DNA of 28,848 bases, from the NCBI GenBank assembly GCA_965366305.1, contig CBDUEX010000001.1, forward strand, positions 1 to 28,848. Reading direction: 5' to 3'. Below the pieces are notes generated by a model. The model was not told where the DNA came from and searched no databases. It saw nothing but the letters and a program-made list of their open reading frames with translations. The first letter of the stretch is position 1. Every line of letters starts with the position of its first letter. Below, in pieces: positions 7,001 through 25,136 of this stretch. The stretch is from an uncultured Bacteroidia bacterium (lineage in GTDB: Bacteria > Bacteroidota > Bacteroidia > NS11-12g > UBA9320). The position numbers were made by a program, and so were the translations under genes.

Positions 7001-8004
7001 AAATATTCTGAATATGTTTTGATAGCTGATTTAACTTTATCTAAGGTCTCTTCTAGTGATTCTTTACTAGCTCCACCTGCCGCATTTTTATGTCCACCAC
7101 CATTAAAATATTGGGCTGAAAATTCATTGCAAGGGAAATTTGATTTACTTCTAAAGCTCATTTTCACTAAAGACCCTCTATCTATAATTAACGCACTCAT
7201 TTCCACTCCCTTGATACCCAATCCATAGTTCACAAAGCCCTCGGTATCTCCCGTTTTAACATTGTAATCTTCCAGTTCTTTAACGGTTAAATGTGAAAGT
7301 GCAACTTTCCCATCTTCAATCAATGTTATTTTTTTAGAAAGAAAGTATCCTAATAACTGTAGTCTCTCTAATCTATTTTGATCAAATAATCGTTCATACA
7401 AATGTGATGGTTTTACCCCTAGGTCTATTAAGGCACCTGCAGTTCTAATAGTGTCCCCAGTGGTGCTATTGTATCGAAAAGAACCCGTATCTGTAATTAA
7501 GCCAGTGTAAATACATTCTGCAGCATCTTTAGTTAAATGTTTGAGCTCCAAATGTGACTTGATGTAATAATATATTAATTCACATGTAGAACTTGCCCCA
7601 ATAGAACAAAGTCGTTCGTCATCAAAATCTTGAGGATCTCGATGATGGTCTATTAAAATGATTCTTGCATTGCTATTGGTAATTGCTTCACCCATTTTAT
7701 TTATCCTTCCAATGGCATTAAAATCCAAGCAATAAACCAATTCTGAATTAGCAATTATTTCATTTGATTTCTCTTCATTGCCTTCGTAAATTAATACATT
7801 TTCATTCCCAGGAATCCACCATAAGAAGTCAGCATAATCTGTTGGAGTAATTACAATAGAATCAATTCCGGCACTTTTGAAGTAGTTATATAAACCAAGA
7901 CTTGATCCCATTGCATCGCCATCAGGCTTGTGATGTGTTGTGATGACAATTTTACCTGAATGTTTCTTTAGGTCGTCTAAATTGTGTGATATTGTGTTTT
8001 GCAC
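6997..8004 (-). CDS. nrnA: DHH/DHHA1 phosphoesterase (oligoribonuclease / pAp phosphatase NrnA)
   Basis: [35 protein letters not shown] motifs; GTG start. Confidence 0.92.
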
Positions 8005-8046
8005 TTATTTTTTGCGGCAAAACTCGTTAAAAGATGGAGATAATTC

Positions 8047-8054
8047 TATTTTTG
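8047..8054 (+). promoter_or_regulatory. Bacteroidota sigma-70 -7 promoter element for ndk
   Basis: TATTTTTG matches TAnnTTTG and ends 20 nt before the ndk ATG; no clear -33 TTTG at canonical spacing. Confidence 0.65.
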
Positions 8055-8074
8055 CCGCCCTAAATCGAAAAACA

Positions 8075-8491
8075 ATGTCAAACATTACATTCACAATGAT
8101 TAAACCAGATGCAGTTTCAAACGGACATACTGGTAAAATAATAAACGATATTTTAGAAGGCGGATTTTCAATCAAAGCTATGAAATATCTTCATTTGAGT
8201 AAAGAGAAAGCGGAGGCTTTTTATGGTATTCATAGAGAGAGACCTTTCTTCAATGATCTTGTTTCATTTATGACTTCTGGTCCTATCGTTGCTGCTGTTT
8301 TAACTAAAAGTAATGCAGTTGAAGACTTCAGAACTTTAATTGGTGCTACCAACCCTGCTGATGCGGCGGCTGGTACAATCAGAAATAAATATGCAAAATC
8401 TATTGATGCCAATGCAATTCATGGCTCAGATAGCGATGAGAATGCCGCTGGTGAAGCTTCATTCTTTTTCTCAGCTTTTGAGATGTTCTAG
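8075..8491 (+). CDS. ndk: Nucleoside-diphosphate kinase
   Basis: [38 protein letters not shown] (phospho-His). Start corrected from 7940 to ATG 8075. Confidence 0.97.
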
Positions 8492-10688: not shown

Positions 10689-10752
10689 GTTTAACTAAAT
10701 AAACCCCACTTTTCTCGCATACTTATCAAAATATCAAGTGGTTTAACTAAAT
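10689..10752. repeat. Two copies of the 12-bp motif GTTTAACTAAAT (10689-10700 and 10741-10752), candidate operator sites
   Basis: Exact direct repeat 52 bp apart with palindromic core TTTA-AC-TAAA; copy 1 lies within the 22-bp near-palindrome GGTTTGTTTAACTAAATAAACC (10684-10705). Confidence 0.45.
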
Positions 10753-10755
10753 TTG
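10748..10755 (+). promoter_or_regulatory. Bacteroidota -7 promoter element for the six-gene AAA+ operon
   Basis: TAAATTTG is a perfect TAnnTTTG ending 24 nt before ATG 10780; the TTG start used by the ORF track (10753) is part of this element. Confidence 0.7.
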
Positions 10756-10779: not shown

Positions 10780-12150
10780 ATGTCAGATTCCTTTGATTTA
10801 TTGGACCAGCTAGGTGACCAAAAAAAAGTAGAAGCCCTCAAAGCAAAAATTGAAAAGAAAACAAGCACAGATATAACATCTAAGCTTGATAAAATTGAAC
10901 AAGAAATTGAACAAGCTGTTGCAGACAATAGATCCACTGAGGATATTGTAAGCGGAATTATCAATGCCAATTTTGAAACACTAAATGGCGATGTTGATGC
11001 AACTGAAGCAGATTTACAAGAATTGATGCTTCACTTGCGATCGATGCTGGATAGCTGTGGCGGAGAGTTTGGCAAATTGCAAGAATTAAATGATTCAGAA
11101 TTAAAATTAATTGAGCTTGCAACAAAGGCAAGGGAGGCCGCTGAGCGTGAAGCAGCAGATGCAGAAAACTTATCAAGTGCCTGGAACATCTTATTTGGTT
11201 ATAAAAACAGAAAAGTAAAAAGCACCAAAGAAGATTTTGAAAAGAAAGTTGAAGGGCTTAAAAATGCCGAAGCAGAGGCTCAAAGAAGATACAGAGACCG
11301 TCTTAAAAATGCCGATATTGGTGAAAGCTTAAATAGAATAATAAGCCAGGTTCAAGGCATGGTAGGTATTGTAGAAAATATGATACTGGACGTAGACAAA
11401 CAAATAAGTGCTCTTAAAAACAGAAAAGAGCTTGCTTTTGAAACCAAAGAAAAAGCTGCTCGAATTATGGAAGAGCGTAAAGTAGATTTAGATGATGTTG
11501 AAGGGAAATTAAAGCAATCAGAATCTGAACTTACCGAGTTGGCTAACAATAGTCCTGAGTATACCGCCCAAGAGAAAAAAATCGCAGATCTAAAAGAACT
11601 AAGAGCAAACCTAAAAGGTAAGTTCAATATTGCACTTGGTATTTTTCAATCGAAAGAGCGGTTTGTTGATCAAATTGTAGTGCACCTTGAAGCTCAAACA
11701 ACAACTAAAAATAACCTAAAACAATTAATTGGTCAGTTAAAAAGTGATACGGAAGAACGTGTGACTACTTATGAATCAGGATTACAATTAATTCAATCTG
11801 CAACTGCACAAGAAGCTGCTTCAATGTATGAAGAAGCTGGTGTTAAAACCGATCAAAAAATTACAGAAATTGCTGCCAAAGTATTGGTAGGCTCTGAAAA
11901 AGATAGAATTACACGTGTTAAGAAACACCCACAACGAATGACGGAACTTCACAAGGTGTTAGTTGCCATGGCAGAAGCCACAGCTAAGTATAAAGAAGAA
12001 GATGCTAAGTTGATGGAACAACACAGTAATAAGTTCGGTATTGACGTAAGTAAAACATTCTCACATAACTACGAGAATAAGGTAGATAATGTCAAAGAAA
12101 GTAGTGGAGATAGCTCAAAAGGTAATACTGTAGATGATTTAATGGACTAA
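10780..12150 (+). CDS. Long coiled-coil protein, possibly distant TelA (toxic anion resistance)-like
   Basis: 456 aa from ATG 10780; rich in E/K/A/L/Q, helical heptad pattern, no TM; amphipathic WNILFG motif at about residues 135-140; low-complexity linker then terminal VDDLMD. CDS is secure; family call is tentative. Confidence 0.7.
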   Translation: MSDSFDLLDQLGDQKKVEALKAKIEKKTSTDITSKLDKIEQEIEQAVADNRSTEDIVSGIINANFETLNGDVDATEADLQELMLHLRSMLDSCGGEFGKLQELNDSELKLIELATKAREAAEREAADAENLSSAWNILFGYKNRKVKSTKEDFEKKVEGLKNAEAEAQRRYRDRLKNADIGESLNRIISQVQGMVGIVENMILDVDKQISALKNRKELAFETKEKAARIMEERKVDLDDVEGKLKQSESELTELANNSPEYTAQEKKIADLKELRANLKGKFNIALGIFQSKERFVDQIVVHLEAQTTTKNNLKQLIGQLKSDTEERVTTYESGLQLIQSATAQEAASMYEEAGVKTDQKITEIAAKVLVGSEKDRITRVKKHPQRMTELHKVLVAMAEATAKYKEEDAKLMEQHSNKFGIDVSKTFSHNYENKVDNVKESSGDSSKGNTVDDLMD

Positions 12151-12163
12151 CACAGTTTACTGA

Positions 12164-13261
12164 GTGAAAACCATTGATATAAATAATCACTTTACTTCCT
12201 TAGATAGAAGTGTTCTTGAAGGAGAAAACGCGTATAGCGACTACTTTGAGTATGTGAAACGTGCATTAAATATTCTTCTGAGCTCTTATGATAAGATTTC
12301 AAGCCAAACGCCCCTTGAAGTTACAGTTCTAAAAGAATATTCACAGAAATTCTTAAACACTATTGAAGCGTTTAGGTTGAAATACTCATTTGCAGAGAAT
12401 CAATCTATGCTGGTGGATTTAACTGAAAGTGGATTCCCAAATTTTTTAGAATTTAAAAGACTTGGAGACGATCTGCACAAAAAGGAAAGTGAGCTTTCTA
12501 AAATGCCAACAAAGGATTCGTTAAAACAAAACATTTTAGATCATCTGGTCAAAAAATTCAATGACCCTTCAACGCTATTACAGCAGCTTAGCAAACAATG
12601 CTACTTTAATAACTTAAATGCTCATAAGTTGTTTTTTGAGTTTAATCCTGGGAAAATTGAGCTGATAAAAGAAGCCAATGATAAAGAAGAAACCCGCACG
12701 TATTTTTACTCCTGGGCGTCTTTTGACAGTGTAACCAATAAACCATTTGTTTACACCATGGTTTTTGAAAACCCAACCAATATTTCAAATGAAAACACGG
12801 ATATTAAGAGGGACTTAGACTTTATTGAGGTTATTAAACGATGTACGCATAACAGTTCTCCACTTAAGGTTATTGCATCAGACATAGACAATTCTTACGA
12901 GAATATATATCCAAAGATTCTTAAGCGAATCGAAATTGGTCCTGTATTTGGAAAATATTCAAGAGACAAACACCCATTCACCCTTCTGCTAAATAACCAC
13001 TTTTCTGAAGAGGATTTTATATTCACTTATGAAACGGAAGTAGTTTTTTCAATTGGCCAAAAAAAGACCAAATCATTTTTATCAAAAGGAGAGTTAAGAC
13101 AAGTATTTTACATTGACGAAACAAACAAAGAATGCATGGAGAAAATGATTTCTCAAATTGATAAATACATGATAACGTCCCATCGTGTTTTACAATATTT
13201 GAATGATACCAGACCAGAAGTATTAAAGGGGCTTTCTGTACCTGCTTATATTTATAATTAA
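12164..13261 (+). CDS. Soluble protein of unknown function (operon gene 2)
   Basis: 365-aa ORF, GTG start 13 nt after the upstream stop; no TM or signal; motif-like blocks DLTESGFPNF, WASFDSVTNKPFVY, YPKILKRIEIGP. Confidence 0.8.
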   Translation: MKTIDINNHFTSLDRSVLEGENAYSDYFEYVKRALNILLSSYDKISSQTPLEVTVLKEYSQKFLNTIEAFRLKYSFAENQSMLVDLTESGFPNFLEFKRLGDDLHKKESELSKMPTKDSLKQNILDHLVKKFNDPSTLLQQLSKQCYFNNLNAHKLFFEFNPGKIELIKEANDKEETRTYFYSWASFDSVTNKPFVYTMVFENPTNISNENTDIKRDLDFIEVIKRCTHNSSPLKVIASDIDNSYENIYPKILKRIEIGPVFGKYSRDKHPFTLLLNNHFSEEDFIFTYETEVVFSIGQKKTKSFLSKGELRQVFYIDETNKECMEKMISQIDKYMITSHRVLQYLNDTRPEVLKGLSVPAYIYN

Positions 13262-13262
13262 T

Positions 13263-15224
13263 ATGGAAAAACAAGAATCATCATTGTTAAAAATTAAAGA
13301 GGCCGACCTTCTTGAATACAAAGAAGATATCACTGCATACTTGAAGCAAGTTGGTTGGAAGCCAGATAATAAAACTTCTAGTTCAAGTGTAGACCTAAAT
13401 TTTTTAACCAATGTAAATAAGGCTCTTGAGTTACAGCAAGAAGATGAAATATCCATCTTAAAAGCTGCAATTAGAATAAGTGACGACAGAGTTCTGTTGT
13501 CTAACACCTGTAATAAGATTTTAAACGCTGTTAGAACAGGTTACTCGCTCGGAAGGCATATTGCTAAATTATATTCAGACGCAAGCGGACTAGAGCTGCT
13601 ACAACAAAAAAACACAAGCGGCGACCTGCATCAGTCAGAACTTCCAGAGTTTCATGATAAGAGTCAAACGCAATCCGCCATACTTGTATATAGTGCAGCT
13701 TCGTATATTACGTATGCTTTAAACGATTTTATGGCCGATGAAGTTGCTTCCATACCAATGGATTTCAATGGAATCCCTCAAATTAGTTTGACAAGGCCAT
13801 CCAAAGCTATACAATGCACGCTATATTACTATGCGGCATACTTGGAGCGTTCTGGAATTGTGAATACCGATTTGCACTTTCTTAAAATTACATTATTATA
13901 CTTCGAACGCGTTGTTGAAGAAATTCAATTACGAAAAAATGCATTGAAGTACAGTGAGATTTTTACTCAAAACCACTACAAATTAGAAAACACTGAGTTC
14001 ATACTTCAAGGATTTGAAACTCATTCTGCTGCTAGTGTTAAAGGAATGCAATTTAATCCAACTAGAATGGAAGAAATTGTATCGAACAAGCAGGCAAAAC
14101 ACATGTTTAAACGATATGCAGAGCGATTGTTGTGCTACGATTTGGATGCTAAGAAGAATCCCATGAACGAATTAGGTGGTCTCCCTTCTATAACCATGGC
14201 CGATGGTAAACCAGGCACAGGTAAAAGCATGCTAATTGCAGCAACTGCAACCTTATTGCAAGAACGCTGCGATCAACTTGGACTGAATTTCCTTTTTTGG
14301 CCATTGCCAGAGAATATAGTTTCTACTTTCCAAGGAGGTACTGCCGAACGAGCGATGGAATGGTTTAAGCCCATGCAAGATCCAAACAAAATTGTTTTTG
14401 CTCCTATTGACGATGCCGAGAACAATTTAGAGGAGCGAACAAGACAAGGAGTTTCTGCAGGGGTACGTGAATTTATAGGCGTGTTTTTAAGAAACACTGA
14501 AGGAGCTTATGCCGTAAATCATGGCAATAGATTAATGAGTCTATTTACCAATATTCCCGATCAAATCGACAAGGCGGTTTTGTCTCGAATTCAAATGAGA
14601 ATTTCTATGGAAGGAGCATCAAATAAGTTCGACTTTATGGACCAGGATTATTTGTGGTGGCAGAAGTATGCTGAATTGGATAAAAACTTTGTAAACAACA
14701 CAATGCCAAACAACTATACGTTTATGGATGCTCAGAAAGAGGCAAATTCGATCAACGATTTAATTGAGGACAAATACAGCTTTACCAATCACAAAGTAGA
14801 AGATATTTATAGTGCAGTTAAGAAAAACACAGATCCAAATTCGCACGAATTTTTTGGAACGTTCTATGACGCTATTTTAGATCAATATCCTTTTTTCTCT
14901 TCAAGGGACCTTAGAAATATTCAGAAAGCAGTAGATGCACGATTAATAGATTTTGATCTTCCAGAAATATGGTGGGATAATCCCGATGACTTTTTCACCA
15001 AAGAGTACGATCAAAAATTAACTATCCTCAAAGATTTGATGAAACAGAATATGAAAGGTGCATCATTTGGACAAGTACGAATATTTGAAGCCCTAAATTA
15101 TATTGAAAATTCAATTCGAATTAATGAAACTGGAATTAACCGAGAAATTAAGCAACGGGCAAAAGAATTGTATATTCAACAACAAGCTAATCAACAACTT
15201 AACAGCGGAATTATAAATGATTAA
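13263..15224 (+). CDS. AAA+ ATPase of classical AAA type with a long N-terminal domain
   Basis: Walker A GKPGTGKS (res 315-322, nt 14205-14228), pore-loop-like IVSTFQGGT, Walker B IVFAPIDDAE (D383-D384), SRH FTNIPDQIDKAVLSR (res 428-442), lid motif SSRDLRNI. Confidence 0.9.
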   Translation: MEKQESSLLKIKEADLLEYKEDITAYLKQVGWKPDNKTSSSSVDLNFLTNVNKALELQQEDEISILKAAIRISDDRVLLSNTCNKILNAVRTGYSLGRHIAKLYSDASGLELLQQKNTSGDLHQSELPEFHDKSQTQSAILVYSAASYITYALNDFMADEVASIPMDFNGIPQISLTRPSKAIQCTLYYYAAYLERSGIVNTDLHFLKITLLYFERVVEEIQLRKNALKYSEIFTQNHYKLENTEFILQGFETHSAASVKGMQFNPTRMEEIVSNKQAKHMFKRYAERLLCYDLDAKKNPMNELGGLPSITMADGKPGTGKSMLIAATATLLQERCDQLGLNFLFWPLPENIVSTFQGGTAERAMEWFKPMQDPNKIVFAPIDDAENNLEERTRQGVSAGVREFIGVFLRNTEGAYAVNHGNRLMSLFTNIPDQIDKAVLSRIQMRISMEGASNKFDFMDQDYLWWQKYAELDKNFVNNTMPNNYTFMDAQKEANSINDLIEDKYSFTNHKVEDIYSAVKKNTDPNSHEFFGTFYDAILDQYPFFSSRDLRNIQKAVDARLIDFDLPEIWWDNPDDFFTKEYDQKLTILKDLMKQNMKGASFGQVRIFEALNYIENSIRINETGINREIKQRAKELYIQQQANQQLNSGIIND

Positions 15225-16488
15225 ACTCATTCAAAACGGCTTATTTGCGGATAACTTATTTGCGGTTAATAACCCGCTAATGGTAAAACGCTACAACGGC
15301 TGTTTGACTGATATAGGACTTACTCCTACAAAGCTAAAATCATTTCATATAGATGGTTGGGGTTGGAGTCCTGAAATTGCAGAGGAACAAGGCAACAGAA
15401 CTTACTTGTGCCATGGTTTGGCAAATCCATTTGGAATTATAATAAGTCCAGAACAAGAAAAGAGTTCCATTTACATGCCTTTTCATACGTTCGATTCGCA
15501 AATACATAAACTAATATTTAAACTTTATAAAGACCAAATTGCAGATATTACAGCCGTTTGTGGTTTATGGTTTGAGCTGGACCAAGAAATTACAGCCTAT
15601 CGATCTCCTCAAGATTTATTAATGGTTGACTATGTAAATGTTGCATTCTATTCAGTAGACCGCATTATGACCGCTGCTCAAGAACAGCGGGCTCTTATTC
15701 GCGAGTTTTATGATGTGCCTCAAGCATGGTCAAATAAAGAACTTCGCGATAGCATTATTGCAAGTAGTAAAAAACACGGCGATCTTCGATTTAAAAAATT
15801 TGAAATACCTAATACTCCTTTTGTAGATATTGAAAACTATTACACGCTGGCTTTCAACGGCTTATACGTATTCAAGAACCTCAATAATGATAAGCCTGTT
15901 TTGATATTTTCAAATGAACAATCAGAAGTTTCAGGAGAATCTACTCATGGTCATTTAGAATTCAATGCTTCAGACCCACAACTACTGAGCTATTTGTATA
16001 CTAAAAATATAATTTCTAACGACTTAAGCCTCTATCAAACCCACCCTGTTTTAATTGAACTCTTAAAAGATTTTATACTTATTGAAGCGGCGATTAATTT
16101 TGACGATAGCATTCCATTTAATGAATTGAACAAAACTCAGATGAAAGGCGTAGTTAACAAACTCTTATCGCAACATATTTTACCTGAAGAATACTTTGAA
16201 CTTGAGAAGCTCTTAACCGTTTTAAAAGACGATAAAGCTGTTCAATCTTATACCATTCCAGAGAAACTTAGATCGTACTTGCTTCATCCTCATTACTCAC
16301 TAAATGAGAATCAAACAAAAGTAGTTTGGCAACTATTGGGCAACATAAACAAGCACAACCCCTTAACTCTTTACCTGTTTAATAAATCGCTGTTCTATTC
16401 CAGCTATGGCAATTGGCATGAGCAAGTTCAGAGTTGGGTGGTAAAAAAACTTCTTGAACATAAACACATCTACAACAACTTAATATAA
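15217..16488 (+). CDS. Soluble protein of unknown function, DUF6638-like (recalled from memory, unverified)
   Basis: 423-aa ORF overlapping the ATPase stop by 8 nt (ATGATTAA); motifs FHIDGWGWSPEIAEE, NPFGIIISPEQ, YYTLAFNGLYVF. Confidence 0.75.
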   Translation: MIKLIQNGLFADNLFAVNNPLMVKRYNGCLTDIGLTPTKLKSFHIDGWGWSPEIAEEQGNRTYLCHGLANPFGIIISPEQEKSSIYMPFHTFDSQIHKLIFKLYKDQIADITAVCGLWFELDQEITAYRSPQDLLMVDYVNVAFYSVDRIMTAAQEQRALIREFYDVPQAWSNKELRDSIIASSKKHGDLRFKKFEIPNTPFVDIENYYTLAFNGLYVFKNLNNDKPVLIFSNEQSEVSGESTHGHLEFNASDPQLLSYLYTKNIISNDLSLYQTHPVLIELLKDFILIEAAINFDDSIPFNELNKTQMKGVVNKLLSQHILPEEYFELEKLLTVLKDDKAVQSYTIPEKLRSYLLHPHYSLNENQTKVVWQLLGNINKHNPLTLYLFNKSLFYSSYGNWHEQVQSWVVKKLLEHKHIYNNLI

Positions 16489-16492
16489 TTTT

Positions 16493-17008
16493 ATGGATAC
16501 TATACTTTCTCTCATTGTTGGCTTTGCATTCGGATTAATATTCACTTTCTGGGATAACAAAAACGGTAAGAAATGGTATAAACGCTGGCATAATTTAAGC
16601 CATAAATCTCCATTACCAGAGGACAGTAATTTAAGTTTTACAAACAACCAACCATTTTCAAAAAGACTTGTTCCAGCAATAATCTTAACTGCAATTTTTG
16701 GATACATCACCTGGATGTTTGGTGAATTAAACCTTATCTATACCATTCTAACATTTACACTTATTCTTATTGGCGTTCTTTTAGCATTTTACACAGGACC
16801 ACTCATTCTAAACGCTCTTCCAGGCAAACTTAAGGAGGCAAACAAAGCACTTAAGAAAATTGATGAATTAGAACAAGACTTAAAATCCAGTGCGGAAACT
16901 ATTCTTCCAACAAGAAAAGAAGAGGCCGAACCCATAAAAGAAGTTAAGCCTGAGAAGAAATCGGATGACGATTGGCGAAAAGGAGTAAAAGGTTTCTTAG
17001 ATAAATAA
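16493..17008 (+). CDS. Small membrane protein (3 predicted TM) with charged C-terminal coiled-coil tail
   Basis: Hydrophobic segments ILSLIVGFAFGLIFTFW, LVPAIILTAIFGYITWMFG, LIYTILTFTLILIGVLLAFY; then KLKEANKALKKIDELEQDL and terminal DDDWRKGVKGFLDK. Confidence 0.8.
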   Translation: MDTILSLIVGFAFGLIFTFWDNKNGKKWYKRWHNLSHKSPLPEDSNLSFTNNQPFSKRLVPAIILTAIFGYITWMFGELNLIYTILTFTLILIGVLLAFYTGPLILNALPGKLKEANKALKKIDELEQDLKSSAETILPTRKEEAEPIKEVKPEKKSDDDWRKGVKGFLDK

Positions 17009-17015
17009 ATAAGCT

Positions 17016-18611
17016 ATGGAAGAAGAAATTATTGAAGAAAATAAAAGTAGGCTTTATTGGATTGTCACTAACCTAAGAACTGGTTTCAAAAATTCAGTTA
17101 AAAATGCATTTAAAAAAAGGCCTATTATAAGTGTATTAGTAACAATACTCTTACTTTATATTGTTTTTGTTAGTCGAGGAACCTTACAGCCAGCTGTATT
17201 GTTTATTCGTAAATACTTTCTTCTAATTTCAATAATCGCCATTCTCCTTTTTTGGTTTACTAGAGGCTGGCCTTCTCGAACTACGAAAGGGAAGTTGTTG
17301 TCTACCATATTCCTCATTATTTTTACTGGTTTAAGTTGGTTTCTTGGGGAAGGACTTTACAAGTACTTCAGTTTATACTTTCATTATACAACAATTGAGA
17401 AGATTGATTTAGAAGAAATTCCATCCACCGGATTTGAGAGAATTCAACCAATTAATTCCGTTAAAACACTTATTAATCAAGAAGCGTTATCAGAAACTGA
17501 AGATGCTACAACGCCTCGTTTTATTCGCGGTAAGGATGGTAGGTACTATTATAGTTGTGCAGTTGGGCCGGCAAGAGAATATAAGGTTCAGCAAATGACC
17601 AAACACATGTACGAGTTGATACATATTCCAGCAGATTTGCCTGCTCCCGTGTTTTCAAAAAAGTACCGTGATGTCATCAATTTTGATATTGGAGAATTAT
17701 TGCTCTTTAGTAAAGAAACCTCTAATGCCGTAATCAAAAGATTTAACTTACTGCAATACATTAATTACGAACCCTCAGAATCTATATTTATCGAAAATGA
17801 TAAAGGTAAATGGTTGCAAGTGGTGCCACTTATTCGTTGGAAGGGCATCTTGTTTCCTCGCCCTGTATTTGGGGGTGTTATGCTAATTGAAGAATATGGA
17901 GAAAATGATTACGCTATTAATCGTATCATGTTTGGCAAAGGGAAATACATCAATAAAGATGAGATAAGCAATATCCCTGAACTTAGTGGTCAAAGTTTAT
18001 TGCCTAAAAAAGTGGCTCAATTTATTGCCGAAAGTTTTCGATTTACGAATGGATTTCTTTCGCCTATGCCCATGTATCATGAAGGAGATATTAGAATTCC
18101 TATTCTTCCTAATGATGTAGACCCTCAGCCTTTTACAACTTATTTTACCATAAATGGCAATGGAAAGTTGTATAACTTTTTTGGTCTTGAACCCTATCAA
18201 GAAAACAAAAAGGGCTTGAGCTTAAGCTTGCTTATACCCGGAGATAATGATAGTAAAGTGTACTATATCGATCACCGCAAATCAAATGAAAGTTACATAG
18301 GTAGCAGTGCGATTTCTGCTAAAATTATTGAAAGCAAGAAAAATTATGATTGGACCAAAAACTACCCTGCAGAAAGTCGCCCTTTTGTGAGAATAGTTGA
18401 TGGAAAATCTCGCTTCTTTTGGTTAAGTACAATTGTAACTAAAGCGGGAGAAAACAAAGGAGAATATATTGGCGGTAGCATTCCAGAAATTACACTTACC
18501 GATGCTCAACATGGAAAAGTAGTTTGGATAAGTCAAGATTCATTAATAAATAATGAAAGCTGGATTATTCAGGCGAAGAAAGAAATGCAGAGTTATTGGG
18601 AAAAAGAATAA
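17016..18611 (+). CDS. Membrane-anchored protein (3 N-terminal TM plus about 400-aa soluble, probably periplasmic, domain) of unknown function
   Basis: TM-like IISVLVTILLLYIVFV, YFLLISIIAILLFWF, LLSTIFLIIFTGLSWFLG flanked by basic residues; remainder hydrophilic with many short aromatic, beta-strand-like segments. Confidence 0.8.
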   Translation: MEEEIIEENKSRLYWIVTNLRTGFKNSVKNAFKKRPIISVLVTILLLYIVFVSRGTLQPAVLFIRKYFLLISIIAILLFWFTRGWPSRTTKGKLLSTIFLIIFTGLSWFLGEGLYKYFSLYFHYTTIEKIDLEEIPSTGFERIQPINSVKTLINQEALSETEDATTPRFIRGKDGRYYYSCAVGPAREYKVQQMTKHMYELIHIPADLPAPVFSKKYRDVINFDIGELLLFSKETSNAVIKRFNLLQYINYEPSESIFIENDKGKWLQVVPLIRWKGILFPRPVFGGVMLIEEYGENDYAINRIMFGKGKYINKDEISNIPELSGQSLLPKKVAQFIAESFRFTNGFLSPMPMYHEGDIRIPILPNDVDPQPFTTYFTINGNGKLYNFFGLEPYQENKKGLSLSLLIPGDNDSKVYYIDHRKSNESYIGSSAISAKIIESKKNYDWTKNYPAESRPFVRIVDGKSRFFWLSTIVTKAGENKGEYIGGSIPEITLTDAQHGKVVWISQDSLINNESWIIQAKKEMQSYWEKE

Positions 18612-18622
18612 TAAAACTAAAA

Positions 18623-19165
18623 ATGGCATCATTCAAATCATCGGCTGAATCTCAAATTACTATATCTGAACTTATGGTACCAGCTCACTCCAATTTTGGA
18701 GGTAAAATACATGGAGGATATATCCTAAGTCTCATGGATCAAGTAGCGTTTGCTTGTGCATCAAGACACAGTGGAAATTACTGTGTAACAGCCTCTGTAA
18801 ATAAAGTTGATTTCTTACATCCTGTAGAAGTTGGCGAATTGCTAATTCTCAAGGCATCTATAAATTACACTGGAAATACTTCTATGGTAGTTGGTGTTCG
18901 AGTTGAATCTGAAAACATTCAAACTGGTAAAACCAATCATTGCAATTCCTCTTACTTTACAATGGTAGCAAAAGATGAGAATGGTAAAAATGTAAAAATT
19001 CCAGGAATCCTGATTTCAGACAACCAAGGTATAAGAAGATTTGTAAGAAGTGTTAAAAGACAAGAACAAGCTCAAATGCGTGCCAGCAACTTTGGTGAAT
19101 CTACTTTCGATGCGAGTAAGTATACTGAATTATTAAAGCAACACAATGTTAAGTTAGCTGTTTAA
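18623..19165 (+). CDS. Acyl-CoA thioesterase (HotDog fold, YciA-like)
   Basis: MVPAHSNFGGKIHGGYILSLMDQVAFACA, VTASVNKVDFLHPVEVG, TGNTSMVVGVRVESE. Start corrected to ATG 18623. Confidence 0.9.
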   Translation: MASFKSSAESQITISELMVPAHSNFGGKIHGGYILSLMDQVAFACASRHSGNYCVTASVNKVDFLHPVEVGELLILKASINYTGNTSMVVGVRVESENIQTGKTNHCNSSYFTMVAKDENGKNVKIPGILISDNQGIRRFVRSVKRQEQAQMRASNFGESTFDASKYTELLKQHNVKLAV

Positions 19166-19836
19166 TCAGTTTCACAACATTCCATTTTTTCTTTTTCTAC
19201 ATCGTAATCCGGGCTTAAATAGGGGATACCTAATCCAGCAGATCTTATAATCAATACGAGACCTACAATCAAGAGTAATTTAGGCGTATGCTTATTTAAT
19301 TTTAGAATTAAGCTGCCTTTTCCAAATTTAGGTAAGTAGGATATGGCAAGTAGAATTGGTAATGTTCCCACGCCGAAGAGAAACATATAAAGAACAGCGT
19401 TTAATGCACTTCCAGCGTTTACAGACAATATAGCAGCTCCAAAAGACAAGCCACAAGGCAATAAGCCATTTAGAAAGCCAAGACTTATGCTGCCTGTTCT
19501 TCCTGGATTGATAGTTGACATCCAAGATGAAACCTTCTTAGACAGAAATTCAACTAAGGCGTTTACTGGTTTAATATAGCTTTTAAGTGCATAAAGCACT
19601 AACAACACACCGCTAGCTAATCCTACATATTGTTGCAGTTTAAATACTTGTAAGGGTGAAATTAAAAAGTAAAAAAATAGAGCTAAAACAGCGTAACCAA
19701 TCCATCTACCTAAATGGTGAACAAGAAGTGAGAATAGGGAATAATCACGAGCGGCTAAGCCCAACATTAATGGTCCACACATTGCTGCACAATGAAGACT
19801 TCCAAATAAACCCAAAATAAATGCAGACCACATCAT
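19162..19836 (-). CDS. DsbD_2 / sulfite-exporter-like membrane protein of cbb3 oxidase assembly clusters
   Basis: GLFGSLHCAAMCGP and GFLNGLLPCGL motifs, about 6 TM, last gene of the cco operon. Confidence 0.88.
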   Translation of the reverse strand: MMWSAFILGLFGSLHCAAMCGPLMLGLAARDYSLFSLLVHHLGRWIGYAVLALFFYFLISPLQVFKLQQYVGLASGVLLVLYALKSYIKPVNALVEFLSKKVSSWMSTINPGRTGSISLGFLNGLLPCGLSFGAAILSVNAGSALNAVLYMFLFGVGTLPILLAISYLPKFGKGSLILKLNKHTPKLLLIVGLVLIIRSAGLGIPYLSPDYDVEKEKMECCETD

Positions 19837-20267
19837 TTGACAATCTGCTTCTTAATAAAGAACGGTGTGCTATTTACACTTCCTTTAACTTCTATTACCC
19901 ATATGCCTTGTCCCAAATCACCTAAGTTGAAAGTCGACTCATTTTTTTGCGTAGGCATGTCGTTCTGTTCTACTTTAAGTGTTTTGTCTCTTTTAGAATC
20001 AGCAAGATTCACCAATCTAATTTCTTCAACTAACCCTATTGAATCAAATTCAAAATGAATGGTATTAGATTCGCTAGCAAACTTCATATTTACGTGTTCG
20101 CCAACTTTCTCCATGTTCATTCTTGAAGTGTGATCTTCACCTTTTTCGTAATAATCTTGCTCGTATAATGATTGGCTTGAGGTTGCCATTTTTATTCCCA
20201 TTGCTACAATAAAGACAATGAATAAAACCATAGCAAGTATCAATATTTTAGACCAATCCAATTTCAT
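19833..20267 (-). CDS. ccoH: FixH/CcoH-family protein
   Basis: N-terminal W..IL..M..FIVFI TM, LYEQDYYEKG motif, downstream of ccoG. Confidence 0.8.
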   Translation of the reverse strand: MKLDWSKILILAMVLFIVFIVAMGIKMATSSQSLYEQDYYEKGEDHTSRMNMEKVGEHVNMKFASESNTIHFEFDSIGLVEEIRLVNLADSKRDKTLKVEQNDMPTQKNESTFNLGDLGQGIWVIEVKGSVNSTPFFIKKQIVK

Positions 20268-20327
20268 TTTTTTACTTTAAGAATTACAAAGATGCTTAAA
20301 TCTTGTGAATGAATAAAGGTCTTTCAT

Positions 20328-21728
20328 TTATTGACGTACCGGAGCTAAAAACTTAGTATTAAATGTTTTAACTAATTCTCCTCCGATAAATAAATCCAAT
20401 TGCATTGGGATCTCATTTTCAAAGATGTCTTTTTGTTCCATCTCAATGAGCAGTACTTTTTTCTCTTCGTTGTTTGATTCTAAAATAGAGTCTTTATCTG
20501 CCCGAATAAGTACGGCGTTTTCACTTTTAAGTTCAATTTGGAAATCCATGTCTTCAAATGTTTTATTTACAAGTGACAGGTTATAAAGATTACTTACCTT
20601 TCCATCCGCAGCTTCGGTGTAGGTCATCCCTGGTACTCTAAAGATATTCGCCTCTACACTAGTTCTAGTTGCAAGAATTGCTACTGAAGATCCAAATAAA
20701 ATCAACATTACAATTGTATAAGCAATAATTCGAGGGGTGAATCTAAACCCAATTTTGTTCTGAATATTGTTTTTCGAATCAATGCGAATTAGTCCAAGAG
20801 GGAGATCTATTTTTTCCATCACAGAATCACAGGCATCCATACAAGCTGTACAATTAACGCACTCTAACTGAGTCCCATTCCTAATATCAATACCTGTTGG
20901 GCAAACATCAACACATAAGCCACAGTCTACACAATCGCCTTTGTCAGACTGCTCTTCGCCTCTTTTCTTTTTCCCTCGAGGCTCTCCTCTTACTTCATCA
21001 TACGCTACCACCATACTGTTGGGGTCTAGCATTACCCCTTGCAATCTTCCATAAGGGCAAATAATGACACAAACAATTTCGCGTAGCCTTGCAAATACAA
21101 TGTAAAACACAATTGTAAAAATTACCAATCCAATAAGAGTAATGTAATTCTCAGCTAATGGACCGGAAATTTTTTCCCATAACGCTTCATATCCAATCAG
21201 GTATACAAAAAAGGTGTGAGCTATAATAAATGAAATCAACAAAAACACGAAGTGCTTTGCTCCTTTCTTAAAAATTTTCTCACGGTTCCAAGGCATGGCG
21301 TCTAGCTTTTTTTGCTTATTCGCGTTGCCTTCTATCCAGTTCTCGATTTTTCGGAATACCATTTCCATAAAAATGGTTTGGGGGCATGCCCAACCGCACC
21401 AAACTCTTCCAAAAACCACTGTAAATAACACAATAAACACGAGTAGGGTAAGTGCAAGAAATACAAAGACGTGAAAATCTTGAGGCCAAAAGGGTTGTCC
21501 AAAAATTACAAACTTTCGTTCAAAAACATTTAGCAGCAAAAGTGGATATCCCCCAATTTTAATAAAGGGTGCTAAGAAAAAGAATGCTAAAAGAAACCAA
21601 CTTAAATATGTTCTATACCTGTAAAACGCTCCTTTTATAATTTTAGGATATATCCAAATCCTTTTGCCGCTGTCAGTAACATTAGCTAAATGTTCTCTGA
21701 AATTTTCTGTATTGGGATGATTGCTCAT
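20328..21728 (-). CDS. ccoG: Cytochrome c oxidase accessory protein CcoG/FixG (4Fe-4S, copper reductase-like)
   Basis: WCGWACPQT, CVIICPYGRLQ, CVDCGLCVDVCPTGIDIR, CVNCTACMDAC. Confidence 0.95.
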   Translation of the reverse strand: MSNHPNTENFREHLANVTDSGKRIWIYPKIIKGAFYRYRTYLSWFLLAFFFLAPFIKIGGYPLLLLNVFERKFVIFGQPFWPQDFHVFVFLALTLLVFIVLFTVVFGRVWCGWACPQTIFMEMVFRKIENWIEGNANKQKKLDAMPWNREKIFKKGAKHFVFLLISFIIAHTFFVYLIGYEALWEKISGPLAENYITLIGLVIFTIVFYIVFARLREIVCVIICPYGRLQGVMLDPNSMVVAYDEVRGEPRGKKKRGEEQSDKGDCVDCGLCVDVCPTGIDIRNGTQLECVNCTACMDACDSVMEKIDLPLGLIRIDSKNNIQNKIGFRFTPRIIAYTIVMLILFGSSVAILATRTSVEANIFRVPGMTYTEAADGKVSNLYNLSLVNKTFEDMDFQIELKSENAVLIRADKDSILESNNEEKKVLLIEMEQKDIFENEIPMQLDLFIGGELVKTFNTKFLAPVRQ

Positions 21729-21744
21729 TGTTTAAAGGGTAGTG

Positions 21745-22653
21745 CTACCCTTCTACTTCGTTACCTGGTGTTTCTTCTTCTTCAACAGAAGTTTCTTCTG
21801 AGGTTTCTTCTGGAACCCATTTGTCACCCTCAGCTGCTTTTGCACCAGGAGGATTTGTTCCTTCGATACTTAAAATATAACTGGTAACTTTCTGCATCAT
21901 ATCTGGGGTCATATTGTCTTGCCACGCTGTCATACCTTTCTCTACAACTCCATACTTAATTGTTTTAAATATGTTTTTAGCTCCTCCACCATGTTTCCAA
22001 AACTCATCGGTTAAATTAGGACCAACGCTACCTGCTCCTCCATCAGCATGACATACCTTACAGTTCTGAATATAAATTTTCTTACCTGCTTCAATATCTT
22101 CCGCACTGGTTAAAGCAACCACGGTGTTCTCATCAACACTGGCTCCTTCTTCTGTTAAACTTGAGGTTTTTGCTTGTTCAACCTCGGCCATTTCTGCAAT
22201 GTATTCTTCTTCTTGTGTGGGTCCACTTCCAGTAATGCTAAATCTTACAAAATAGATTACTGCAAACAAAATTGTACCATAAAATAAAAACATAAACCAT
22301 GGTGGAGGAGGGTTATCCAACTCATAAATTCCGTCATGAGGTTCGTTTATAATTGTATCCTTATCCGTACCTACTGGTTTAACTTGAAATATTTTTTCCC
22401 AAGTACTACGCTGATCGTACATTTTTTGTTCTTCGTTTTCGTATTCCCCTTGTACATACTTCTTCAAGCTAATTGTAACTTGGTAAAGTAAATAAGTTAC
22501 GACTAGAAGTAAGGCAACTACGGCATAGATTATCCAAAGTAAAGGTTGTGATAACCCGCCAGATTGAGCCGGTTCTGTTCCTTGAGCGAATAGGCTTACA
22601 GAAGGTAAACTTGCTGCTAAAATTAAAGCTATTTTATTCTTCATTATTTTCAT
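21745..22653 (-). CDS. ccoP: cbb3-type cytochrome c oxidase subunit III (monoheme CcoP)
   Basis: HDGIYELDNPPPPWF CcoP N-terminal motif, one CKVCH heme site, GPNLTDEFW, GMTAW. Alternative start ATG 22644. Confidence 0.92.
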   Translation of the reverse strand: MKIMKNKIALILAASLPSVSLFAQGTEPAQSGGLSQPLLWIIYAVVALLLVVTYLLYQVTISLKKYVQGEYENEEQKMYDQRSTWEKIFQVKPVGTDKDTIINEPHDGIYELDNPPPPWFMFLFYGTILFAVIYFVRFSITGSGPTQEEEYIAEMAEVEQAKTSSLTEEGASVDENTVVALTSAEDIEAGKKIYIQNCKVCHADGGAGSVGPNLTDEFWKHGGGAKNIFKTIKYGVVEKGMTAWQDNMTPDMMQKVTSYILSIEGTNPPGAKAAEGDKWVPEETSEETSVEEEETPGNEVEG

Positions 22654-22813
22654 TATTTGATGGTTGAAAGGGTAAATTTGATAAGTCTGTACATTGCTGC
22701 TTACTTAGCGAAAACATATACACTGCTGCTAGAATAAACACCATTAAAAAAATGAGAAGTGCAATTATTAAATAAATATCTGCTCCTTCTACGAATCCAA
22801 TCATCTTTCCCAT
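22634..22813 (-). CDS. ccoQ: cbb3-type cytochrome c oxidase subunit CcoQ (absent from the ORF track)
   Basis: Manual translation: MGKMIGFVEGADIYLIIALLIFLMVFILAAVYMFSLSKQQCTDLSNLPFQPSNNENNEE (59 aa), one TM, between ccoNO and ccoP. Confidence 0.85.
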   Translation of the reverse strand: MGKMIGFVEGADIYLIIALLIFLMVFILAAVYMFSLSKQQCTDLSNLPFQPSNNENNEE

Positions 22814-22822
22814 AATTTTATA

Positions 22823-24973
22823 TTATTTAGTTGCTTCTTCTTGATTGTTAATGTCTCTTCCTAGTTTATGCAAATAGGAAATTAAAGCAATGATTTCTTT
22901 TTTCGAGTCTACTTTTCTTCCTGCATCTTTTAGCAAGCCTCCGCTAATTTGGTTGGCTTGTTTTTCTAAATCTGCCATTGCAAAATCTTCATATCCTTCA
23001 GGGTATGGAACCCCTAAACTTCTCATTGTTGAGATTTTATTAGCTATACTCGAATAATCTCCATCTTCTTCAATCAACCAAGGATATGCAGGCATAATGG
23101 AACCATCAGAAGTTTCTCTCGGATCTTTCATGTGTCTAAAATGCCAATCTGCTGTTTTATATACCTTAGATGCGGTATTCCCAGATCGAGCTAAGTCGGG
23201 TCCAGTACGTTTACTTCCCCATAAAAATGGATGATCATAAACATGCTCTCCTGCTTTTGAGTATTCCCCATATCTTACTGTTTCAGATCTGAAAGGACGT
23301 ACTTGTTGCGAGTGACAATTATTACAACCTTCTCTTATGTAAATATCTCTGCCTTCTAATTCTAGAGGGGTATATGGCGTAACACTTGCTATTTTAGGTA
23401 CGTTTGATTCCACTAAAAATGTTGGCATAAACTCTACTAATCCTCCAATTGCAACTGCAACTAAAGAGAAAACAATTAACTGTGTTGGACGTTTTTCAAT
23501 CCATCTGTGCCAATGCGAATGTGCTACAACAGCTCCTTTTTCTTCTTTTACTAATGGATATGCTTCTGCTGCTTCATTGGGAACCAACTTCCCTGCTTTC
23601 ATTGTTTTAAACAGGTTCCACGACATTAAACATGCTCCGGTTAAGTATAATAACCCTCCAAACCCTCTTAGCATATGCATTGGTAAGATTTGAAGTGTAG
23701 TTTCAAGAAAGTTAGGATAACGTAGTACGCCGTCCGCAGTAAACTCTTTCCACATTAGGCCTTGAGTAAAGCCAGAGAAATACATAGGAATTGCGTAAAA
23801 CAGTATTCCTAGAGTTGCAAGCCAGAAGTGAGTTCCAATCATTTTCTTGGAGAAAATTTTTGTATTATATATTCTTGGAATAATGTAATACAGAATAGCA
23901 AAAGTTAATAATCCATTCCATCCAAGTGCCCCTACGTGCACATGAGCTACAATCCAATCAGTAAAGTGAGCAATAGCGTTTACGTTTTTAAGTGAAAGCA
24001 TAGGGCCTTCAAAAGTTGACATACCATAAGCTGTTAAACCAACTACCATGAACTTAAGAATAGCGTCATCTCTTACTTTATCCCACGCACCTCTTAAGGT
24101 TAATAATCCGTTGAGCATTCCACCCCAAGATGGTGCCAATAACATCACACTAAAAACTACACCAACCGTTTGTACCCATCCTGGTAAAGAAGTATATAAC
24201 AAATGGTGAGGACCCGCCCAGATGTACAAGAATATCAATGACCAAAAGTGTAGAATTGACAGTTTATACGAATAAATTGGTCGATTCGCCATTTTAGGCA
24301 TGAAGTAATACATTAATCCTAGAAACGGAGTGGTTAAGAAAAATGCCACAGCATTGTGTCCATACCACCACTGAACCAAGGCATCTTGAACCCCAGCAAA
24401 TGCAGAATAAGACTTAAATAATGATACAGGTAATGCAAAACTGTTTACTATATGAAGCATAGCCACAGTTATAAAAGTTGCTAAATAAAACCATATTGCA
24501 ACGTATAAATGCTTCTCTCTCCTCTTGTAAATTGTGCCTATCATGTTCCATCCAAATACCACCCAAATTAGTGCAATTGCAATGTCAATTGGCCACTCCA
24601 ACTCAGCGTATTCTTTCGAACTCGTTAATCCAAGAGGCAGTGTTATAGCCGCAGCTACAATAATCAATTGCCAACCCCAGAAATGAATACTACTTAATGC
24701 ATCACTAAACATTCTTGCTTTTAATAAGCGTTGTAATGAGTAGTAAATTCCCATAAAAATAGCATTTCCCACAAAGGCGAAAATGATAGCATTGGTGTGT
24801 AAAGGTCGTAGTCGTCCAAACGAAAGGTATCTCGTGTTGAAATTGAAATAAGGTTCGAACAATTGAAAGGCAATTGTAACTCCTACGAGCATGCCTACTA
24901 AGCCCCAGACCACTGTTGCTATACCAAAGTTTCGAACGATCTTATTGTCGTAATTGAAGGTCTCTTTTTGCAT
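22823..24973 (-). CDS. ccoNO: cbb3-type cytochrome c oxidase, fused subunits I and II (CcoNO)
   Basis: FGRLRPLHTNA, WWYGHNAV, WAGPHHL, IVAHVHVG metal ligands; fused CcoO part with GRDIYIREGCNNCHSQQVRP, WGSKRTGPDL, SIMPAYPW. Confidence 0.97.
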   Translation of the reverse strand: MQKETFNYDNKIVRNFGIATVVWGLVGMLVGVTIAFQLFEPYFNFNTRYLSFGRLRPLHTNAIIFAFVGNAIFMGIYYSLQRLLKARMFSDALSSIHFWGWQLIIVAAAITLPLGLTSSKEYAELEWPIDIAIALIWVVFGWNMIGTIYKRREKHLYVAIWFYLATFITVAMLHIVNSFALPVSLFKSYSAFAGVQDALVQWWYGHNAVAFFLTTPFLGLMYYFMPKMANRPIYSYKLSILHFWSLIFLYIWAGPHHLLYTSLPGWVQTVGVVFSVMLLAPSWGGMLNGLLTLRGAWDKVRDDAILKFMVVGLTAYGMSTFEGPMLSLKNVNAIAHFTDWIVAHVHVGALGWNGLLTFAILYYIIPRIYNTKIFSKKMIGTHFWLATLGILFYAIPMYFSGFTQGLMWKEFTADGVLRYPNFLETTLQILPMHMLRGFGGLLYLTGACLMSWNLFKTMKAGKLVPNEAAEAYPLVKEEKGAVVAHSHWHRWIEKRPTQLIVFSLVAVAIGGLVEFMPTFLVESNVPKIASVTPYTPLELEGRDIYIREGCNNCHSQQVRPFRSETVRYGEYSKAGEHVYDHPFLWGSKRTGPDLARSGNTASKVYKTADWHFRHMKDPRETSDGSIMPAYPWLIEEDGDYSSIANKISTMRSLGVPYPEGYEDFAMADLEKQANQISGGLLKDAGRKVDSKKEIIALISYLHKLGRDINNQEEATK

Positions 24974-24974
24974 A

Positions 24975-25136
24975 TTAATTTTGATTTATTTGTTTTGGTT
25001 GTTTTTTATCAAGTATTCTCATTGAAGGTGATTCTAAATCATCAAATTGTCCTTTTCGCACCGCCTTATAGAAAGCATATAAAAATATTAATGCTAACAA
25101 TAAACTTAGTGATATAAGTAATACAAGTATTTTCAT
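24975..25136 (-). CDS. ccoS: cbb3 oxidase maturation protein CcoS (absent from the ORF track)
   Basis: Manual translation: MKILVLLISLSLLLALIFLYAFYKAVRKGQFDDLESPSMRILDKKQPKQINQN (53 aa), with the GQFDDL..P..RIL signature; abuts the ccoI stop. Confidence 0.92.
   Translation of the reverse strand: MKILVLLISLSLLLALIFLYAFYKAVRKGQFDDLESPSMRILDKKQPKQINQN

Follow-up and report, generated by a model that had tools for sequence, protein, structure and literature searches.

In a 28,848-nucleotide stretch of DNA from an uncultured Bacteroidia bacterium (GenBank assembly GCA_965366305.1, contig CBDUEX010000001.1, positions 1–28,848; hereafter the window), six co-directional genes (positions 10780–18611) form a real, self-contained and conserved operon. 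Gene 3 encodes a classical AAA ATPase; the other genes encode one coiled-coil protein (gene 1), two proteins that are translationally coupled to the ATPase (genes 2 and 4) and two predicted membrane proteins (genes 5 and 6). Judged by its sequences, the module appears to be new in kind: five of the six protein families are without a characterised relative, and two of these five (genes 2 and 4) have confident predicted folds for which no solved neighbour was found. Tentatively, we read the operon as encoding an undescribed envelope-associated AAA machine for membrane or envelope maintenance. The original prediction, which was made from the sequence alone, had proposed an uncharacterised multi-protein machine built from an AAA ATPase, a helical protein and membrane partners. 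This proposal held: searches of Pfam, NCBIfam, PADLOC, PDB and the literature covered turned up no characterised system that the module matches. Apart from FtsH, bacteria are known to have few classical AAA ATPases, and every one characterised so far defines a major cellular process.

The six open reading frames are tightly packed. From gene 1 to gene 6, the junctions are 13, 1, −8, 4 and 7 nt in length, and the coordinates on which the original prediction was based were confirmed exactly (Table 1). Genes 3 and 4 overlap by 8 nt, and the same overlap is present in most Bacteroidia loci; in at least 20 related loci, the junctions are likewise short or overlapping. None of the inter-gene junctions contains a terminator-like site, in agreement with the earlier claim that the operon has no internal terminator; eight weak sites were found, all of them within genes, compared to 5.8 expected by chance. 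The operon is preceded by one Bacteroidota-type −7 promoter box, TAAATTTG, from which the extended box TAAATTTGAGCAACTT continues. The bare TAAATTTG motif is at chance level and not enriched, with 27 copies in the window versus 42 expected. To follow the box across genomes, 125 nt of upstream DNA were aligned for 11 loci; the extended box, TAAATTTGGGCAACTT, stands at a constant distance from the gene 1 start in 9–10 of them, and the DNA 5′ of the box is unrelated among the 11 loci. The retention of the box next to different upstream DNA suggests that the promoter apparently moves together with the cassette, and it bears out the dedicated −7 promoter that had been proposed. A scan for sigma-70 promoters returned fewer matches than shuffled sequences; the sigma-70 model is not applicable to Bacteroidota.

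Table 1. Positions of the operon genes, of the motifs discussed in the text and of the adjoining thioesterase gene in the window
Feature	Position	Strand	Remarks
−7 promoter box, Bacteroidota-type, TAAATTTG	10748–10755	+	Read from sequence; 24 nt 5′ of the gene 1 ATG
Gene 1, 456 residues	10780–12150	+	ATG start; a TTG at 10753 is likewise open
WNILFG motif of gene 1	11182–11199	+	W135 and G140 invariant among closer homologues (alignment)
C-terminal V-[DN]-x-L-[ML]-[DE] motif of gene 1	12130–12147	+	Follows a variable low-complexity linker; candidate docking motif
Gene 2, 365 residues	12164–13261	+	Open reading frame
Gene 3, 653 residues	13263–15224	+	Open reading frame, AAA ATPase
Walker A of gene 3, GKPGTGKS	14205–14228	+	G318, G320 and K321 invariant in 90 members
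Pore loop 1 of gene 3, F-Q-G (family: Ar-Q-G)	14328–14336	+	Y/F/W in 77/90, Q in 82/90, G in 89/90
Walker B of gene 3, IDDAE	14406–14420	+	Asp replaces the catalytic Glu; D383 in 89/90; position 384 D in 84/90, E in 5/90
Sensor 1 and second region of homology of gene 3, TN-P---D-A--SR---R	14547–14600	+	N430 in 90/90, R442 in 89/90, R/K446 in 84/90
Gene 4, 423 residues	15217–16488	+	Open reading frame, DUF6638
Gene 5, 171 residues	16493–17008	+	Open reading frame, membrane protein
Gene 6, 531 residues	17016–18611	+	Open reading frame, membrane protein
4HBT thioesterase	18596–19165		Overlaps the end of gene 6

The gene 3 protein contains one PF00004 AAA domain (E 1.3e-8, 35.8 bits versus a cut-off of 21.2). 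It aligns with proteasomal Rpt4, the second region of homology (SRH) included, and belongs to the classical clade. Against the PDB, the family profile matched Cdc48 D2, VAT and Afg2 at 1e-28 to 1e-24 and Vps4 at 1e-15. All these matches are confined to residues 251–457; the N-domain of ∼250–300 residues (about 1–250) and the C-terminal ∼190 residues (about 460–653) are orphan regions. At E ≤ 1e-30 the family comprises 122 clusters (50% identity level), nearly all of which are ∼650 residues in size. Motif conservation was counted over 90 full-length family members (Table 1); besides the listed positions, Asp436 and Ala438 of the SRH, the lid motif G-A-x-T-x-x-D and Arg548 are near-invariant. 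Walker A, the Pfam domain and the SRH are all present, whereas the Walker B of gene 3 departs from the hhhhDE pattern with a catalytic Glu that characterises classical AAA proteins. Judging from the motif counts, the Asp-for-Glu substitution is a family-wide variant and no local mutation. Taken together, the conserved motifs suggest that gene 3 is probably an active motor with translocating pore loops.

Gene 1 encodes a helical, coiled-coil protein. It is the best-conserved member of the cassette: across more than 100 Bacteroidota clusters, identity is 62–91%, and where loci were matched, gene 1 surpasses both the ATPase and the adjoining housekeeping protease Tsp in conservation. For a coiled coil, conservation of this degree is unusual; it suggests that most of the protein surface is constrained, as it is in self-assembling proteins. 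No Pfam, NCBIfam or PADLOC family covers gene 1, and its profile search against the PDB returned generic coiled coils only. In 12 diverse gene 1 homologues, neither Snf7 (PF03357) nor PspA_IM30 (PF04012) matched at E ≤ 10. At its C-terminus, gene 1 carries a motif shared by 104 full-length Bacteroidota homologues; this motif takes the form EDDLLG in locus L017 and is missing from distant homologues. It may serve as a docking motif.

One alternative takes gene 1 for a divergent TelA and the operon for a toxic-anion or tellurite-resistance module. Among the clusters ranked by language-model features of gene 1, TelA appears from position 15 on (score 0.88, 199 shared features); the predicted structures of a close match can be aligned with a TelA cluster at a TM-score of ∼0.5; and one distant locus, L019, has a bona fide TelA gene a short way 3′ of the core, with a few genes in between. 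In L019, however, TelA is a separate, extra gene. The identity of gene 1 with TelA was rejected: the Pfam TelA model matches none of the 12 diverse homologues at E ≤ 10 and nothing in the whole genome; hhalign gives a probability of 0.1% against five TelA proteins; and the xFG motif that was supposed to be shared is absent from these five proteins. We therefore regard a TelA-type module as extremely doubtful.

Gene 2 encodes a soluble protein, the predicted structure of which consists of one N-terminal helical bundle and one C-terminal domain of long β-strands. Gene 4 belongs to DUF6638 (PF20343; E 9e-36, 124 bits versus a cut-off of 27, residues 12–415), and gene 2 has no Pfam, NCBIfam or PADLOC family. 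AlphaFold2 predicted both folds with confidence: the predicted local distance difference test (pLDDT) and predicted template modelling (pTM) values are 88.6 and 0.86 for gene 2 (alignment of 37 homologues) and 91.1 and 0.86 for gene 4 (alignment of 43 homologues). At E ≤ 0.001, Foldseek found no PDB or BFVD neighbour for the gene 2 model and no PDB neighbour for the gene 4 model (best E 0.9), and the TM-scores are below 0.25. Lipid-binding-cup matches that recurred for gene 2 are treated as noise at such TM-scores. Atlas searches with genes 2 and 4 gave no usable matches, and paralogy between the two proteins was rejected (hhalign probability 1%). Gene 2 lies directly 5′ of the ATPase gene in every sufficiently long ATPase locus. 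In Flavobacteriaceae, DUF6638 proteins mostly match Pfam in two pieces (∼5–225 and 345–395) inside one open frame, so the middle third of the family must be highly divergent there. No mention of DUF6638 was found in the literature searched, which gives no functional account of DUF2333 or DUF1523 either.

The topology of genes 5 and 6 was derived from hydropathy and from Lys plus Arg counts according to the positive-inside rule, and it is thus a rule-based inference. Gene 5 is predicted to have three transmembrane segments, an outside N-terminus and a charged cytoplasmic C-terminal tail of ∼70 residues (17 homologues); L016, L017 and L021 contain a homologue or a gene in the equivalent position. 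For gene 6, the prediction consists of a basic cytoplasmic N-terminus (7–8 Lys/Arg and no acidic residue), a tight hairpin of the first and second transmembrane segments, a basic loop and a third transmembrane segment. The remaining ∼415 residues are acidic and are therefore predicted to lie outside the cytoplasm. The positive-inside counts for gene 6 are consistent in 11 homologues, across which ∼50 columns are invariant. Gene 6 has no Pfam or PDB relative, and gene 5 has no Pfam, NCBIfam or PADLOC family. In some distant loci a transmembrane-anchored DUF2333 (PF10095) protein follows the core genes, and like gene 6 it is predicted to expose its main domain outside the cytoplasm. Membership of gene 6 in DUF2333 was rejected, as gene 6 has no Pfam match and its hidden Markov model scores DUF2333 proteins at E > 0.3; at the sensitivity used, the two appear to be alternative partners, not relatives.

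These properties of the ATPase and the membrane proteins bear on a second alternative, membrane-protein quality control. Genes 5 and 6 would serve as the dock for a soluble AAA ring, which would extract or unfold damaged or mislocalised proteins that sit in the inner membrane or are exposed to the periplasm, in the manner of Msp1, Cdc48 or FtsH and without a protease, with genes 1, 2 and 4 as substrate adaptors. A classical-clade unfoldase nearest to the Cdc48 D2, VAT and Afg2 profiles, with conserved pore loops and with membrane partners that have predicted extracytoplasmic domains, would suit this role, and the periplasmic protease Tsp adjoins the cassette in the window lineage. However, the adjacency of Tsp is found in close relatives only, and the conserved core contains no protease or degradation partner. 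Quality control also leaves unexplained why a 456-residue coiled-coil protein is the most conserved part, and why the membrane partner is swapped between unrelated families. We consider it unlikely.

A third alternative is one export or assembly device, in which the ATPase, like EccA-type or secretion-chaperone ATPases, would unfold or chaperone gene 1; bearing a C-terminal signal, gene 1 would then be inserted or exported by way of genes 5 and 6. The conserved gene 1 motif that follows a disordered linker is compatible with such a signal, and the predicted extracytoplasmic domain of gene 6 with such a route. Weak coil matches were also seen: one gene 1 homologue matched the SipB translocator and the distant L019 homologue matched Bacillus HBL. 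Both matches are sub-threshold and of a kind usual for coiled coils, and the C-terminal motif is lost in distant gene 1 homologues. Between them, genes 5 and 6 have no more than six transmembrane segments, and neither belongs to a recognisable channel or translocase family. An export device is thus very improbable.

The distribution of the operon was followed by an ATPase scan over one genome per species, which yielded 17 loci. All six genes are syntenic in every locus that is long enough; the loci are from 15 Bacteroidia metagenome-assembled genomes (MAGs), one Cellulophaga MAG and one Candidatus Buchananbacteria (Patescibacteria) MAG, the last two with ATPase identities of 43–44%. The expectation that homologues would be co-located in other genomes was thus borne out by synteny across phyla. 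In more distant members (22–30% ATPase identity), the first four genes are kept in the same order; these members comprise metagenome contigs, Sinorhizobium meliloti (S. meliloti), Vibrio megaplasmids and one phage-like contig. What follows 3′ of these four genes varies: gene 5- and gene 6-like proteins in L021 and one further distant contig, the DUF2333 protein in L019, L020 and S. meliloti L031, and nothing obvious on the Vibrio megaplasmid. The varied genes after the fixed four indicate that the unit is a four-gene core plus an exchangeable membrane partner.

Several of these loci have features of their own. In L019 (12181–17956), the core is followed co-directionally by two small open reading frames, DUF2333, a 203-residue frame, the bona fide TelA, a 215-residue frame, DUF2617 and a protein of more than 533 residues; this arrangement may be an extended form of the system. 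In L002 (9955–11729; MAG contig of 1.3 Mb), the homologues of genes 4 and 5 are both broken into two frames, by either long-read frameshift errors or decay of the genes. In L031 (8986–10731), the copy in S. meliloti Ak57, the ATPase and DUF6638 genes are separated by an endonuclease-domain gene and an ISRm16 transposase; the record is labelled pSymB, and at 3.7 Mb it is chromosome-sized. A ChvI-bound intragenic fragment has been reported for SMc02733 of S. meliloti (PMC3687685); its identity with the ATPase gene of the module is unconfirmed, and it was not used as evidence.

Using DUF6638 as a marker, we estimated how frequent the module is. It was found in 16 of 65 genomes of the window organism's family and in 4 of 27 of its genus, in none of 85 genomes of the sister family and in 3 of 400 other Bacteroidota. 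Flavobacteriaceae, the family of the Cellulophaga MAG, have it in 75 of 250 genomes (∼30%); among 300 other Patescibacteria genomes it is absent. Together with the Cellulophaga locus, the Flavobacteriaceae count supports the homologues in marine Flavobacteriia that the original prediction had named.

Within the genus, the cassette can be followed at a single locus. Thioesterase placements were compared between the window and the loci L036, L049 and L009. In the window and in genome G485, the order is Tsp, cassette, thioesterase; in G401 and in L009, a MAG outside the genus sample, the order is Tsp, thioesterase, cassette. In G441, which has no cassette, Tsp is directly followed by a thioesterase remnant of 69 residues, which may be a deletion scar. 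The cassette therefore acts as one block that is gained, moved or lost within one neighbourhood. In the window genome, the 4HBT thioesterase gene may be co-transcribed with the cassette; since it lies upstream of the cassette in relatives, we consider it a neighbour and not a module member. The sequence conservation described above indicates that the parts of the cassette are under strong purifying selection.

The phage-like contig, L020 (17.9 kb), carries the core and DUF2333 amid many small co-directional genes, several of which are of phage families (NADAR, Thg1, a YqeY-like tRNA amidotransferase and a QueE-like radical SAM protein). From this gene content, L020 is probably a large phage carrying the module. 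No cultured phage was found to carry the ATPase, as 50,697 phage records gave no homologue; a scan of viral contigs with the L020 ATPase likewise gave no match.

The flanks of the operon in the window are of housekeeping type, with a cbb3 oxidase cluster, NDK, a DHH phosphoesterase, FKBP, an ABC ATPase and Tsp; no defence gene, integrase or transposase lies next to the cassette in the window. The oxidase cluster (19162–27479, minus strand) is a complete cbb3-type cluster with a fused CcoN-CcoO (716 residues, COX1 plus FixO); its other members are CcoP, FixG, FixH, a DsbD_2-family membrane protein and a FixI-like P-type ATPase with an HMA domain. With its listed GTG start, the NDK open reading frame (7940–8491) shares 65 nt with the start of the divergent DHH gene; the true start is probably later, as the Pfam match begins at residue 50.

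Distribution and flanks bear on a fourth alternative, an anti-phage or conflict system in which the ATPase and its partners would sense infection and the membrane proteins would act as effectors in abortive-infection style. The module is patchy even inside one genus and isolated in Patescibacteria, and its presence on Vibrio megaplasmids and a phage-like contig would fit such a system. PADLOC-DB 2.0 gave one sub-significant match, of gene 3 to the IetA AAA protein (E 0.0088, 13.5 bits), and none for the other five proteins; hence no significant PADLOC family exists for any of the six. Different from what a conflict system would suggest, all parts are under strong purifying selection, gene 1 is highly identical across its clusters, nearly a third of the sampled Flavobacteriaceae carry the module and its flanks are of housekeeping type. 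The six proteins contain no nuclease, protease, TIR, Sir2 or pore-forming effector domain. The anti-phage role, which the original prediction had named as an alternative, is therefore weakened, and we rate it as quite improbable.

In the reading that we tentatively prefer, an envelope-associated AAA machine, the ATPase would form a ring at the inner face of the inner membrane, and its Ar-Q-G pore loops would pull on or disassemble an assembly of gene 1. Given its unusually high conservation, the gene 1 surface may be largely interface. Genes 2 and 4 may be adaptors or regulators, and genes 5 and 6 would anchor the machine and couple it to the periplasm or to the state of the envelope. The Asp in place of the catalytic Glu may make hydrolysis slow and switch-like. 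Overall, the function would be akin to membrane maintenance of the ESCRT-III/Vps4 or PspA type, carried out by unrelated proteins.

Several points limit this proposal. For gene 1, no homology to a membrane-remodelling family was detected. In complex prediction, the ATPase N-domain scored 0.36 with gene 1 and 0.47 with an unrelated control protein, so the prediction is non-specific and speaks neither for nor against binding. The predicted topology of gene 6 derives solely from the positive-inside rule. The Walker B Asp could mean a poorly hydrolysing, structural ATPase. Finally, the patchiness of the module (1% of sampled Bacteroidota and 15% of the genus) shows that the system is dispensable. 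The envelope-stress or membrane-remodelling role of the original prediction accordingly stays at the level of analogy and inference.

The module is carried by about one third of the sampled Flavobacteriaceae, by rhizobia, by Vibrio megaplasmids and by one candidate-phylum genome. Functional work is very likely to uncover a new envelope-associated process, and it would give DUF6638, and indirectly DUF2333, a function; the copies in cultivable Flavobacteriaceae and S. meliloti make the module experimentally tractable. Our analysis contributes a footprint of the promoter across loci, estimates of how often the module occurs, motif counts over the whole ATPase family and the motif at the gene 1 C-terminus. 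Within one genus, it traces how the cassette is present, absent or rearranged at a single locus, and it gives negative results on a TelA identity of gene 1, on paralogy of genes 2 and 4 and on a relation of gene 6 to DUF2333.

The original prediction had compared the layout of the operon to ESCRT-III/Vps4 and had pointed to the envelope-stress proteins PspA/Vipp1 and TelA. The comparison stands as an analogy; as a statement of membership it does not, since no Snf7, PspA, TelA, MIT or Vps4_C signal was detected. Like PspA/Vipp1 (IM30) with PspB and PspC, the operon combines a soluble helical protein with small membrane proteins, and an envelope-stress role is plausible; however, none of the six proteins matches PF04012, PspB, PspC, Toastrack or LiaF. 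A survey of the gene neighbourhoods of PSP and ESCRT-III (PMC11237479) reports AAA proteins in other bacterial associations, a Vps4-like protein with a TPR-6TM protein and a double-AAA protein; the present cassette is not among them.

Compared to Vps4/ESCRT-III (CdvC/CdvB in archaea; Vps4/Snf7 in eukaryotes), the operon likewise encodes a single-domain classical AAA protein with a putative substrate-binding N-domain beside a helical protein. This helical protein probably self-associates, has a short conserved C-terminal motif and would act at the membrane. The two differ as follows: gene 1 is double the size of the ESCRT-III subunit and gives no Snf7 or PspA signal; gene 3 matches neither MIT (PF04212) nor Vps4_C (PF09336) at E ≤ 0.1, and its Walker B is DD; two added core proteins of unknown fold and a membrane pair that is predicted to face the periplasm have no ESCRT counterpart. 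The ESCRT-like reading is thus best taken as an analogy and not as membership. In its fullest form, the module would be an independently evolved ESCRT-III/Vps4 analogue: self-assembling gene 1 would be remodelled by the AAA ring through two adaptors of new fold, a membrane pair with one large periplasmic domain would couple the process across the inner membrane, and the whole would spread horizontally between phyla, with at least one large phage as carrier. We consider this complete picture somewhat unlikely.

TelA/KlaB (PF05816) is similar to gene 1 in being a soluble, all-helical protein of ∼400 residues, and the predicted-structure clusters are loosely alike; different from this general resemblance, no similarity to TelA in sequence or profile was found. 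For the ATPase core, the best profile matches are to Cdc48/p97, VAT and Afg2, and the Arg fingers of the SRH, the pore loop and the EG-A-x-T-x-x-D lid motif are shared with these and Msp1-type proteins. Gene 3 differs from them in having one AAA domain with an orphan N-domain and C-terminal extension, the pore loop Ar-Q-G instead of Ar-hydrophobic-G, and Asp for Glu in Walker B. The D2 domain of NSF is a classical AAA domain that also has Asp at the catalytic Walker B position. Different from NSF D2, the gene 3 family keeps both the pore loop and the Arg fingers, and their conservation favours an active motor over a purely structural ring.

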